Source: Eledone cirrhosa (lineage: Eukaryota). From it: a stretch of DNA of 64,000 bases. The position numbers were made by a program, and so were the translations under genes. Below, in pieces: positions 2,215 through 63,071 of the stretch; the first letter of the stretch is position 1, and every line of letters starts with the position of its first letter. The stretch covers positions 45,632,001 to 45,696,000 of the forward strand of contig OZ024743.1 in NCBI GenBank assembly GCA_964016885.1. Reading direction: 5' to 3'. A model generated the notes under the pieces. It made no database searches. It saw only the letters and a list, made by a program, of their open reading frames with translations, and was not told the DNA's origin.

Positions 2215-2250
2215 TCTTCTGATGAAGGACTAGCGTCCGAAACGTTAAGA
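2215..2250 (+). ncRNA. Minimal type-I hammerhead ribozyme in a PLE pLTR fragment (about 2160-2345)
   Basis: TCTT-CTGATGA-aGGAC tagc GTCC-GAAAC-GTT-AAGA, with palindromic stem III. Same family at 59357-59392 and, decayed, at 30201-30250(-). Confidence 0.8.
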
Positions 2251-2367
2251 CACTCTTCCTGCTATATCAAGCGTTAACCTAATATATCCCTTCTATATAC
2301 TGTACCGATTGTGTTGTTATCTCTGTTTACCTTTTACATACATACAAATATATATATATATATATAT

Positions 2368-2709
2368 GGAAAGTTATATTTAAATTGTTGGGTTAACAAC
2401 GAGTAAATATTTATAACTGATATAAAAGCACTCAACAAGTATTTGGAGTATATTTATGATATTAAATAAATGGAAACTATATTTATAAAACCATATTTAT
2501 TTCGTTATATATATTTCAGGGATATCATATTAACAATATGTTATGCCGTCTTCAGACAAAATACAATATAAACAGTTTATTTATAAGACTGTTTATATTG
2601 TATTTTGTCTGAAGACGGCATAACATATTGTTAATATGATATCCCTGAAATATATATAACGAAATAAATATGGTTTTATAAATATAGTTTCCATTTATTT
2701 AATATCATA
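2368..2709 (-). mobile_element. Non-coding foldback PLE-derived element with hammerhead, in (TA)n
   Basis: Perfect inverted arms of about 120 bp (2456-2576 / 2589-2709) and a unique tail at 2368-2455. HHR at 2602-2665: ATTTTGT-CTGAAGA...GAAA-TATATATA-ACGAAAT, 7-bp stem I. Confidence 0.8.
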
Positions 2710-2732
2710 TATATATATATATATATATATAT

Positions 2733-3330
2733 TAGAAAGTGAGGTTTTTTTTACAAAATGAAAAATAACCGAGGTGTCCTACACGAGTGAAAGTATAAAG
2801 AAAAAGAGATGAAATCGAAAATGCAACTGGAGTCTTATTTTTTTTTTAAATATATATATTTATTTGGTTCCTTTACCGGTTTCGCAGTTCTTCTGCTTTT
2901 TAAAAGGTGAGTTGAGATGGAGGGTCTGTGGTTTTTCTCACATCTGGTTGGTCTCTGAATGTTACTTGTTTTATATGGAAAAAGTGGCTCGAAATACCAG
3001 GTTTTTCGAGAAGTAATTTGATTGGTTTGTCAATAATTATAATAAATTTCGCGCCAGTTCGCGTTACAATAGTTCTTCAAATAAGAGAGGGGGGTTGTCA
3101 CAGGTTGTTTTTTCATATATGAGTGTTTGAATTTCTTTTTACTTGAAAAAAGGAGGTTCACGAAGGCTTTTTTTTAGTTGGTTATAAATGAAATTTGGCT
3201 GTCACGTGAACAAGTTTTCATTACATTTTTGCGCCCTCATTTGGAAAACTATTCTGTAGTCTTTATAGTGAATGTTATGACAATGGTCAGAAATAATGAT
3301 ATTTGTTTATTGAAAAATAAATTTTCAATA
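2733..3330 (-). mobile_element. Solo pLTR/3' end of Neptune-type PLE
   Basis: Clearly homologous to 33521-34110; degenerate HHR at 2868-2908; abuts (TA)n. Confidence 0.75.
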
Positions 3331-4629
3331 ACCAAATATCATTATTTCTGAAGACAGCATATATATGTGTAGGTATGTATATTCCCTCTGATAGTTTGTA
3401 AAATGTTTACTTAGATCTATATGATATACATACCAACACACACATATATATCCTAGAAACGATCGTAAAATGATGAATTTTTTAATATAAGGAACTGTTT
3501 CTTTGTTTTTATTCATTGTTTTTATTAATATATATATATATATATATATATATATATATATATATATATATATATATATATATATATAGGAACAAGTAAG
3601 ACCCCGACGGCTGAGCTCAAGCCGTTTCGACGGCTAAGTCTGTACTGAATGAACATTTATTAAATAGCCGAACTTATCAAGGGGTAATTCCATATATGGT
3701 CAAAGAGATAATCACCAGGATTGGTCACATCACAAGTTAGTAGTAAATCTGTGATGGCAAGTTGGTGGGGGAAGGGGTAGCTAAACCTGCCGGTAGGAGA
3801 AAAAGGGAGAGGGGGTGGAGTAGACCCATTCATGCGTTGGTAGTGCCAGCTACAGCTGGGTGTGAAGTCAAAGAGGATACTGGGGAGGGGAAGGGGAGGA
3901 GGTCGAAACGGTAAGTAGAACAATGAAGGGTAAAACTAAAAGGTACTGAGAGAGAAAAAAAAAATAAATAAGCAAAGTTTGGTTACTAAGACTTAGGTCT
4001 CTCGCTATTGCTAGGCTAAAGAAATACATAAATAAATAAATAAACAAATAAGTGAATAAAAGAAAAGATAAATAAATTTTTAAAAAAAAAATATATATAT
4101 ATATATATAATGTAGAATAAAAAAATAAATAATAATAATAATAGAAATAAACTAGTAAACTAGGTGGGACGGAAATAAAGGGACCCTTATACGAGGTATA
4201 AGTGCGTGTATCGTACGGTGACGGGTCAACAAAGGGGGGGGCCAGAATACTAAAGAGACTACCACGAAATAATAAAGGTTTCTACCCCAATCACAGGGCC
4301 AGCGACCACCCAGTGCAAGAAAGTAAACTAGTACGAGAATATAATTCAGGGTCCCGCAAAAAAATACTAGTGCTAACTCTAAGGGTACCGCCACGAAACA
4401 AAAAGTCTTATGCAAACTACATGAAAGATCGTACGAAGTAAAAATAAAGAACGGAAAATTAATACAGGAACGTCCCCCCCCCCCCCCAAAAAAAAAGGGA
4501 AAAAGAAGAAAGAAATACTGGATAAACGAGAAGATAAAGCAAAGATGCCACTAAGAAATATAGAAGACTCGGAAAAAAGGGACAGCGGTCGGAGAAGGGG
4601 GCGAGTATCCGAAGTCTAACACCGATTTC

Positions 4630-60104: not shown

Positions 60105-60655
60105 CAAGGGATAGACAAAATAATATGAACACCTGGCATAAGCACAATATTTATTTATTGAAAAGATGTTGGACCACTATTTCCTTTTAAATCAGCTTCA
60201 ATTTTATGCGGAATAGATTCGTAAAGTGTCTGAATAGAATGTTGTCCCATTCTTTTACTAAAACATCAACTAATTGCTTTGGCGATGAGATGGAGGTGGA
60301 AATCTGTCTCTGTTCCAAAACTTCCCATGATGGTGATTGTGTTGGCCAGGGAAGATGTTTGATGATATTCTAATGCTCCTCCAACCAAGATTTAACCTTT
60401 TTCGCAGTGTATACGGCGGCATTGTCTTCTTGGAATAGGGCGTGGATTGGCAGTATCGGTAGAGGGTCGGACGCCATGCTTTGCAGCAAAGAGTTACGGC
60501 CCTTTATGGTCTGAGTTCAAATCCCTCCGAGGTTAACTTTGCCTTTCATCCTTACGGGGTCGATAAAATAAAATACCAGTAATACACTGGGATAATTGCT
60601 GGCCTTGTGCCAAAAGTAGAAACAATTATCTTCTTGGAATATGGCAGTGTTTGGC
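60105..60655 (-). mobile_element. Tc1/mariner transposase C-terminal relic with TIR, interrupted by a SINE
   Basis: FQEDNAAVYT, HLPWPTQSP and LYESIPHKIEADLKGNSGPT. SINE A at 60438-60628 with TSD TCTTCTTGGAATA. Confidence 0.8.
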
Positions 60656-61549
60656 ACACACATATATATATATATATATATGTATGTATATATATATATA
60701 TATATATATATATATATATATATATATATATATATATATATATATATATATATATAATTATATATATATATATATAATTATATTAATAAATGGAATCAAT
60801 TACGAATCGCAATACATCCTCGCCGATTAACGAACGTTTTGAACACCAACAGCAACACTTATCAAATATAGAAATAGAAATGAAATATATTGTTCAAATA
60901 GCCGGGTAAAAAATAATTCGGATTATATAGTGACGGCTGACACGTCTTTATATTTTCATTGATTTTAGTTTCAGTTTTACTTAAATTTTGAAGTAAAATT
61001 GCTTGTCAAATCTTTGAAGTTGTATTTTAGTATTACAAATCTTGTTGGAGATAATGGAACTGGATACTGTTATTATGACACGTTATTGTCTTCAAGATAT
61101 CAAATGTTTAATGAGTTGTGAAGAGATATTTCAATGACGTCAGTAATTTGTAACGTTATCACATTCTTCTTTTTCGTTTATTTTTGTGTATTTTGGGGCG
61201 TTATTTATTTTGTCTTGTTATTATTTTTGTAAATAAAGATGCGTATCACTTGTTGATAACGATAGAAAAGGGAATGTTTTAACAAGCCACTTGACACATT
61301 CATTTAGTTAAAAGCACTTAACACTTCAATTATACACATAATCTAAATATTTTCATACAATACAAATTCACACTTCCCTGGAAGTGAGATATAACAAGAA
61401 AGGATCTTGTTTGTTTTATTTTGACTATATGTATGTGTGTGTATGTGTGTTACATTATATTATATTATATATATATATATATATATATATATATATATAT
61501 ATACGTATATATATATATATATATATATATATATATATATATATATGTA

Positions 61550-62490
61550 CACGTACATATATATATATATGTACACGTACATATATATATATACAGACGT
61601 ACAGTAGTATGTATATATATATACATACATGCACACATATATATATGTACGTATGGATTCACCGAACATTTATTATAATGCTCGGTGTGTTTGTAAACAA
61701 ACATCCCGTATTAAGCCGTAGTGTCCAGCAACCATCGTTGCTCGTTTGTTCAACACTGACAAAGGAACGCTGTACTAGTTTAAAGCTTATTAGCTATCGT
61801 CAGCAACGTATACCTTCCTGCCAGATTGTTGAACGTATATACTTACCTTATGCATATTAACGGCTGAGTAGCCCAATTTGCATATCGAGTGAGTTAATTG
61901 GCCGGATGCACCGAAAACGATAAACGGAAAAAATGAAACGAAATTTCATTACCCACTGTTAGTACGGCTGTTACTTAAATATAAGTATGTACACGTACAT
62001 ACATATATGTATACAGACGTACAGTAGTATGTATATATATATATACATGCATGCACACATAACGTTTATCGTTTTCGGTGCACCCGGCCAATTAACCCAC
62101 TCGATATGCAAATTGGGCTACTCAGCCGTTAGTATGCATAAGGTAAGTATATACGTTCAACAATCTTGCAGGAAGGTATACGTTGCTGACGATAGCTAAT
62201 AAGCTTGAAACTAGTACAGCGTTCCTTTGTCAGTGTTGAACAAACATGCAACGACGGTTGCTGGACACTACGGCTTAATATGGGATGTTTGTTTACAAAC
62301 ACACCGAGCATTATAATAAATGTTCGGTGAATCCATACGTACATATATATATATGTGTGCATGTATGTATATATATATACATACTACTGTACGTCTGTAT
62401 ACATATATGTATGTACGTGTACATACTTATATTTAAGTAACAGCAGTACTAAGAGTGGGAAATGAAATTTCGTTTCATTTTTTCCGTTTA
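61550..62490. mobile_element. Second copy of the 28837-family tandem/inverted hammerhead element
   Basis: Inversion near 62060; HHRs at 62180-62222 (+) and about 61766-61809 (-). Confidence 0.85.
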
Positions 62491-62544
62491 TATATATATA
62501 TATATATATATATATATATATATATTTATTTATCTAGATATTTA

Positions 62545-63071
62545 TTTAGGTTTGTTGGTTCACCACTGGTTAGAACTGGTCATTCCGTATGGTCAATCTC
62601 GATGTAATATTATGTAGAGTACTCAACGTAATGCAACTCACCCGTCTTTGTTTGTGTAGTTAGTGGTGCGAGTACGGAGTTAATTATTATAAAATAACAG
62701 GAGGCTGGACTGGTGTAAATCCTTGAAAGGTATATTATACTATGATCACTTCAATGACCGGGTATCAGTATGAATCCGGTGATATCATCAGGTATTCGAA
62801 ATATAACAAAGGAATATAACAGATAAAATCCATGGGACTGAAAATCAGAGGCAAGAGGACGACCGACTATGGTAGAAGCTGCTAAATAGTCAGTCGTCCT
62901 CTTGTCTCTGATTTTCAGCCCCATGGATTTTATCTGTTATATTCCTTTGTTATATTTCGAATACCTGATGATATCACCGGATTCATACTGATACCCGGTC
63001 ATTGAAATGATCATAGTATAATAAACCTTTGAAGGATTTACACCAGTCCAGCCTCCTGTTATTTTATAATT
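62545..63071 (-). mobile_element. Foldback hammerhead element (~185-bp arms) in (TA)n
   Basis: Arms 62686-62870 / 62887-63071. HHR 62961-63019: ATAC-CTGATGA...ACCGG..CCGGT..GAAATGATCATA-GTAT. Confidence 0.85.

Follow-up and report, generated by a model that had tools for sequence, protein, structure and literature searches.

Densely packed, probable insertions of Penelope-like elements with hammerhead motifs at (TA)n microsatellites in an Eledone cirrhosa contig

A stretch of 64,000 nucleotides from Eledone cirrhosa (assembly GCA_964016885.1, contig OZ024743.1, forward-strand positions 45,632,001 to 45,696,000), hereafter the window, was analyzed for elements that carry hammerhead ribozyme motifs beside (TA)n microsatellites. 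The motifs are minimal hammerheads of the Penelope-like element (PLE) type; they belong to many families, whose ends lie at (TA)n. The window is a case of known PLE biology in a new and very dense setting. The elements are very probably insertions made at (TA)n by endonuclease-bearing PLEs of the Hydra and Neptune types: the short stumps of one family, A, match the end of a coding copy, and three other families are non-coding units. The mapped parts together cover roughly 18 of the 64 kb (summed by hand). Positions below are counted from the first letter of the window.

Hammerhead motifs and structure of the insertions

A sequence-only reading had named 12 hammerhead positions, and a type I hammerhead-like motif is present at all of them. 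The conserved core with helices I-III, as expected of a minimal type I hammerhead, was found with both descriptors used here, and an Rfam search of the window gave no match at the gathering score. The second descriptor, which was drafted after the motifs had been seen and permits U3-A8 and U4C cores, detected 19 motifs at a score of at least 8, compared with a mean of 0.4 (maximum 3) in 40 block-wise dinucleotide shuffles; the 19 include mirror and tandem copies and collapse to 11 sequence groups. Helix III was a perfect palindrome in 15 of these motifs and in none from the shuffles. The second descriptor recovered 10 of the 12 named sites, while the site at 12027 (family K; family letters were coined in this analysis) was caught by the first descriptor and that at 62961 (family L) was read by eye. 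The eight palindromes listed earlier are exact, and the sites bearing them are precisely the eight of the 12 that are perfect; at 7420 (A), 11554 (B2), 12027 (K), and 16278 (C), helix III is a hairpin or an imperfect palindrome. The earlier count of 11 families also holds for the 12 sites, since those at 11554 and 13851 are approximately 70% alike. With two further families, H at 10189 and the decayed N at 32663 (both minus strand), the window contains at least 13.

Minimal hammerheads have been described as opposite-strand pairs 100-700 bp apart, with U3-A8, a palindromic helix III, and high diversity within a genome (PMC4209133). The motifs of the window share these features, including the many families per genome, as well as the dimer model and an extra nucleotide before helix II. 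They differ in that their helix III palindromes reach 8-10 nt and that at least 13 families lie within 64 kb. Cephalopods are absent from the results and discussion of that paper, and none of the papers listed by our literature search for hammerheads in cephalopods contained the term.

The layout proposed by the sequence-only reading, in which an inverted arm, an arm, and a tail lie between (TA)n tracts, stands in part. An inverted arm is present at nine of the 12 named sites and lacking at 2215, 11554, and 33644. Most families end in (TA)n, and the element at 33644 (family J) terminates in (TAGA)n instead. At 12 of 15 loci, a (TA)n tract of at least 14 nt was present no more than 350 nt downstream from the cleavage site, versus a fraction of 0.22 for random positions (P ~3e-6, a value that is overstated because the nearer motif was taken at multi-motif loci and neighbouring loci share tracts). 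Loci are chained through shared tracts at 2175-7718 and 13368-17909 and hence are not independent. In the inverted elements, both arms read outward in the sense direction. One arm halts at a fixed point and meets (TA)n, and the other runs through a tail into (TA)n, in all 13 arm pairs compared; the tails measured 49-157 nt by automatic alignment. The arms were 96-100% identical in eight of 10 elements compared (overall range 85-100%), and the centres differ between copies in families A, G, and K.

An inverted truncated copy followed by a tail and (TA)n is the published structure of a PLE insertion (PMC8557442). Published works already cover the inverted copy, the tail, the (TA)n bias, the palindromic helix III, U3-A8, the mismatches at the base of helix II, and the diversity within genomes. 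Where an arm meets (TA)n, we compared the element's own continuation with the TA run and scored 15 of 17 junctions; TA microhomology averaged 2.7 nt, compared with 1.1 nt at random joins (11 family-ends, P 0.008). This pattern suggests that short TA pairing of approximately 3 nt probably assists priming at the element ends. No report of TA microhomology at both PLE ends was found in a literature search whose scope did not extend to Repbase or subscription literature.

The insertions could be explained by the following steps. A GIY-YIG endonuclease, reported in the literature to nick TA-rich DNA, would do so here. Reverse transcription would begin downstream of the hammerhead, at either of two fixed sites, the intervening stretch forming the tail (Frangieh et al., 2024), and the starts would be aided by approximately 3 nt of TA pairing with the target. 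Copying would stop early, and a second product would be joined head-to-head. The mirror arm would usually be built anew at each landing, which would explain the differing centres in A, G, and K. The palindromic helix III would correspond to the known dimer interface of minimal hammerheads.

A fixed short end with an optional tail, and insertion of copies without an intact hammerhead (the family A stumps described below), are also features of PLEs with two-start tails (Frangieh et al., 2024; PMC11167929) and of inverted pseudo-LTRs (pLTRs) with a tail (Arkhipova et al., 2013; PMC3846280). In the window, by contrast, tails are of greater length and short TA microhomology with the target occurs at both ends; for the anole element, the start site is reported to have no homology to the cut DNA (PMC11167929).

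Coding copies, stumps, and a family traced in public contigs

The coding parent of family A lies in the window as a 5'-truncated Hydra-type PLE copy with (TA)n on both sides (3589-7605, plus strand). Its inverted arm at 3588-4623 mirrors 6496-7528 (approximately 1035 nt), and a 77-nt tail follows at 7529-7605. The frameshifted coding region for the reverse transcriptase (RT), thumb, and GIY-YIG endonuclease spans 4621-6173 (plus) and was matched by a hidden Markov model (HMM) of 23 homologues with E values of 6e-110 and 3e-40. The hammerhead at 7420-7513 (plus), with a U3-A8 core variant and a 6-bp hairpin as helix III, has a mirror copy with its core at 3680 (minus). Since the site at 7420 terminates a 4-kb PLE copy and the family A stumps match that end, the view that all elements are mini-elements was rejected; in part they are truncated ends of coding PLEs.

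Four stumps of 115-210 nt carry the tail of the 4-kb copy, and the tail shared by the coding copy and the three stumps compared is 91-100% alike over 86 nt. The stump at 14659-14867 (plus) consists of an inverted arm and the 77-nt tail. Like the other stumps, it is missing the 5' half of the core, which indicates that an intact hammerhead is unnecessary in the inserted copy. A stump with another centre lies at 36425-36631 (minus), and the shortest and most diverged one at 58600-58715 (plus). The fourth belongs to a second copy of 14487-14867 (a B1 piece, TA, and the A stump with an identical centre), located at 23234-23618 (plus) with 95.6% identity. This copied B1/A piece lies within a target duplication of 210 bp that has an internal deletion (22732-23867). 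Its 3' end bears a (TA)n that the first target copy lacks and that therefore arrived with the insert; the stump could have been duplicated either through RNA or by DNA repair.

The family A endonuclease lacks CCHH and, flanking its conserved E and N, has CxxC and CxH (translation of 5682-6224). When this endonuclease was used to search for homologues, none of 269 candidates passed. Of the linker motif CxCX5C, which is present in 12 of 23 long homologues, the window copy has the CxC and lacks the third cysteine. The RWK/DKT region is truncated in this copy; among the 23 long homologues, DKT occurs in 13, DKG in none, and RWK in four. By eye, the protein appears to resemble Hydra-1_Obim, one of the Hydra-clade PLEs, with which family A shares a C-terminal GIY-YIG without CCHH, (TA)n targeting, a hammerhead approximately 100 nt from the 3' end, a mismatch at the helix II base, and an inverted truncated copy, as in Penelope-13_HM (Craig et al., 2021; PMC8557442). 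Family A differs from them in its 1.4-kb 3' untranslated region, U3-A8 core, and 6-bp helix III. Six window motifs were searched for in the consensus files of the supplement to PMC8557442, in which line breaks can hide matches, and none was found. As a side observation read from the sequence, helices II and III of family A use the same five-base strands (7425-7508), so that a competing hairpin covering the GAAA strand of the core could inactivate the ribozyme.

Coding remnants of PLEs adjoin families A, N, and I. The decayed family N hammerhead (32626-32668, minus; helix III ACGTACGT), which was read by eye and failed the descriptor, lies approximately 400 nt downstream of a Hydra-type GIY-YIG endonuclease remnant (33078-33450, minus; HMM E 8e-16). 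A family I copy at 59180-59488 (plus; core at 59361) follows a remnant of PLE RT motifs at 59246-59344. Another family I end, with helix III ACGT and without an inverted arm, occupies 2175-2347 (plus; core at 2219), and a decayed third copy lies at 30200-30252 (minus). RT together with GIY-YIG was found in family A and in the Neptune copy described next, and an endonuclease remnant before N; none was found for families B-H, K, and L. Pfam recognized two of the 10 open reading frame (ORF) pieces.

The second type of coding copy is a 5'-truncated RT and GIY-YIG region at 35134-36385 (minus), assigned to the Neptune type from its motifs. Its RT best matches an Octopus bimaculoides protein (79% identity); the CX2-5CxxC linker and the CCHH GIY-YIG cysteines are present in the translation, and DKG and the linker occur in 28 of 28 long homologues. 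The linker zinc finger, CCHH-type GIY-YIG, and microsatellite bias are like those of Neptune-clade PLEs, from which the window copy differs in having a ribozyme-bearing end that is only putative. This end would be family J (33522-33904, minus; core at 33678), which has U3-A8 and helix III ACCGGT and terminates in (TAGA)n; the coding region lies 1.5 kb upstream of it on the same strand. A second family J copy (2737-3125), whose core is altered, terminates in (TA)n.

Family D (14910-15791) has a 120-nt tail, two 378-nt arms, a U4C variant core at 15116 (minus) and 15710 (plus), and helix III ACAATTGT. Public contigs from three runs of one sample, in which the family is abundant, were aligned to it (2066, 1893, and 1909 contigs). 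A search of public runs with family D listed none of RNA. Summed contig depth, which is not a copy number, fell more than tenfold: it was approximately 50,000-135,000 around the ribozyme and 2,000-5,000 towards the 5' end. Eight of the 12 joints listed are strand switches, every one at a different place. In each run, 23-29 loose ends pass into (TA)n at 15030. The depth gradient and the varied strand switches fit truncated retro-insertions whose mirrors were built at landing. Among contigs aligned to one D arm, no head-to-tail joint and no parent ORF were found. Within the motif, four variants were found in the 40 of 66 rows covered, one at the end of a helix, one forming a G-U wobble in helix III, one in a GNRA loop, and one at the unpaired base, with none in the core; this gives weak support to constraint at the RNA level, variant density being similar outside the motif.

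Non-coding head-to-tail units

Three families consist of non-coding units arranged head-to-tail. Family G has a 431-nt unit with an inverted arm and helix III ACTAGT (copy 1, 28830-29940; cores at 29142, minus, and 29705, plus). Its second copy (61593-62488) is 86-91% identical to the first and has the identical head-to-tail junction with a different centre. These two separate insertions indicate that the 431-nt unit itself was amplified. Family E has a 530-nt unit (16468-17881; helix III ACTAATTAGT), with same-strand hammerheads at 17224 and 17754 and an inverted arm with its motif at 16711 (minus). Family B1 has a 683-nt unit (13443-14638; helix III ACCCTAGGGT; core at 13923, minus) with an inverted arm at 14367-14638. 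The longest stop-free frames of G, E, and B1 encode 53, 64, and 51 residues, respectively. The arrays hold at most approximately 1.4 units; in E, whose array has 1.4 units, two motifs lie on the same strand at a spacing of 530 nt, and G and B1 have one per strand. These partial tandems enclose no ORF, and every coding copy in the window is 5'-truncated.

The three families are probably non-autonomous and would need PLE proteins in trans. A more specific proposal, which we regard as a serious but tentative one, is that they are retrozyme-like RNAs copied in trans by proteins of Hydra- or Neptune-type PLEs, priming at two fixed sites through approximately 3 nt of TA pairing with nicked (TA)n. 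Non-LTR retrozymes are likewise non-coding, are arranged head-to-tail, and have a type I hammerhead; it has been proposed that they derive from PLEs and are non-autonomous (Cervera and De la Pena, 2020, PMC7229834; Li et al., 2026, preprint), the link having so far consisted of co-occurrence and likeness to pLTRs. G, E, and B1 differ from them in being dispersed partial tandems with a PLE tail, an inversion, and a TA target, known here from DNA alone. No report of cephalopod non-coding hammerhead units with a PLE tail and inversion was found in our literature search, which did not include Repbase or subscription literature, where such families may be held.

It is rather unlikely that G, E, and B1 are instead ordinary non-LTR retrozymes, propagated as circular RNA by rolling-circle copying with PLE proteins serving at most for integration. 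Each unit is non-coding, arranged head-to-tail, and provided with one type I hammerhead, and the unit lengths fall inside the 51-972 bp of retrozyme consensus sequences (bioRxiv 10.64898/2026.07.22.740005). Against this, the arrays do not exceed approximately 1.4 units, the motifs are not canonical but minimal or atypical, and the ends bear the PLE tail and inversion. Folding of the E tandem gave -151.0 kcal/mol for the dimer, -151.8 for the monomer, and -160.5 for the free fold, so that the predicted cis-dimer lies 9.5 kcal/mol above the free fold.

Several observations weigh against insertion by PLEs as the explanation. The tails exceed the 30-40 bp described. Both K junctions had no anchor and dropped out of the microhomology comparison, in which three of the 11 values were 0 or 1. 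No coding parent for C, D, F, H, K, or L was found in the window; the RT remnant before the family I copy is a single weak match (tblastn E 0.008, one protein), and family J is linked to the Neptune copy by position alone. Units E and B1 each occur at one locus and could be tandems of two truncated copies. The duplication of a palindromic stump whole with its flank (14487-14867 to 23234-23618) means that not every mirror is new, and the (TA)n of this duplicate is missing from the duplicated target. For family D, contig depth cannot be taken as copy number.

Read-through hairpins, helix III palindromes, and other features

It had been proposed that read-through transcripts would form long double-stranded RNA (dsRNA), and folding predicts long hairpins with 74-92% of bases paired. 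The predicted probability of helix I was 0.000 in seven of seven whole-element transcripts, versus 0.12-0.95 for the motif alone. The ribozyme would be buried by its antisense copy in the hairpin; dsRNA and ribozyme activity are therefore predicted to exclude each other in read-through RNA at equilibrium, and inverted insertions to be ribozyme-silent. Cephalopods edit their RNA heavily. That the host has kept the hairpins as substrates of ADAR or small-RNA pathways with a regulatory role is very unlikely. The predicted pairing speaks for such a role, as do the small RNAs reported for Penelope elements of a rotifer (PMC3846280), but the arms have decayed to differing depths (85-100% identity), as neutral insertions would, and the plus-strand excess of A-C over G-T mismatches occurs irrespective of orientation and gives no pointer to element-specific editing. 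Host-selected hairpins were rejected on these grounds, and hairpins as a by-product substrate are plausible. The mismatch excess itself (35 A-C versus 16 G-T in ten arm pairs, both element orientations; P 0.011, post hoc) possibly reflects regional strand-biased mutation.

The burial of the ribozyme in the hairpin also sets the dsRNA proposal at odds with another, that each family's palindrome is a selected self-recognition code limiting dimer cleavage to its own family. We consider such a code highly improbable. For all 36 cross pairs among the nine perfect palindromes, predicted pairing falls short of the average for the corresponding self pairs, with a smallest penalty of 6.35 kcal/mol, from which passive discrimination is expected. 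The mean cross-family penalty of 12.25 kcal/mol was, however, no larger than that of shuffled palindromes (13.1 +/- 0.5 kcal/mol), 95% of 300 shuffles reaching or exceeding it. The left-arm helix III of C is predicted to pair with that of D at -11.2 kcal/mol, versus -10.9 and -11.5 for the self pairs, so that two unrelated families cross-pair fully. Helix III of D is itself polymorphic: at 15084, over half of the contig depth carries ACGATTGT, the C-type form, which is thus the majority in D contigs. Four of the 12 named sites lack a perfect palindrome, two intact same-strand motifs occur at only one locus (E), and dimers described in the literature have low activity and work in cis, inside tandem RNA (PMC4209133). 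The code was rejected because shuffled palindromes discriminate equally or better and because C and D cross-pair; this negative result suggests that families differ in palindrome by divergence and not by selection for mutual avoidance.

Least likely of all, and barely credible, is that the elements are fold-back DNA units resembling miniature inverted-repeat transposable elements, fixed palindromes that carry hammerheads by chance: the long, 96-100% matched arms in eight of 10 elements compared and the one stump copied with its centre intact are in its favour, but the uniform length, fixed centre, and symmetric ends of such units were not found, and the variable centres in A, G, and K, the tail on one side only, the depth gradient and varied strand switches of D, the junction of family A with an RT gene, and the three of 12 named sites without an inverted arm led to its rejection, largely refuting it for A, D, G, and K.

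The remaining families were mapped as follows. Family F (2368-2706) comprises a tail, an arm, and an inverted arm with helix III ATATATAT and cores at 2555 (minus) and 2609 (plus). The family H hammerhead, found by descriptor (10154-10193, minus), has U3-A8 and helix III AATATT. Family B2 (11405-11949, plus; core at 11559) is truncated, has no inverted arm, and is approximately 70% like B1. Family K (11972-12424; cores at 12023, minus, and 12033, plus) represents two adjacent inverted insertions with different centres. Family C (16016-16423; core at 16286, plus) is an older copy whose arms are 85% alike. Family L (62526-63070; core at 62965, plus) has a tail with an uncertain outer end, two 185-nt arms, and helix III ATGATCAT. 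Possible decayed hammerhead-bearing ends lie between TA tracts at 28206-28314 (score 8, first descriptor) and at 12461-13117 (by eye). Palindromes beside microsatellites at 58894-59048, 13127-13294, and 3287-3351, in which the descriptors gave no hammerhead, are possibly ends of other PLE families.

Other features of the window include a non-LTR retrotransposon with RT (Pfam RVT_1), present in several copies at 44112-57734 that are flanked by (TACA)n and not (TA)n; shorter relatives lie at 18353-19893 and 36808-37481. Decayed pieces at 7719-8500 and 27260-27720 resemble another non-LTR retroelement by eye. A repeat of approximately 190 nt resembling short interspersed nuclear elements occurs in many copies (9110-9632, 26337-26532, 34127-34319, 60434-60635), one of which interrupts the stretch between the Neptune ORF and family J. 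An intronless ORF of 332 residues with a hydrophobic start and many cysteines (20691-21704, minus) had no Pfam family and no atlas match.

In this octopod genome, the loci would probably be a large source of long dsRNA. For PLEs, fixed ends together with TA microhomology provide a testable rule for priming by TA-targeting elements, and homology-assisted priming would be shown in such elements if the proposal for G, E, and B1 is true. That proposal, if true, would also give structural proof, from an invertebrate, that non-coding hammerhead units are integrated by the PLE machinery, and non-coding units with the full PLE integration signature would reveal who moves retrozymes.

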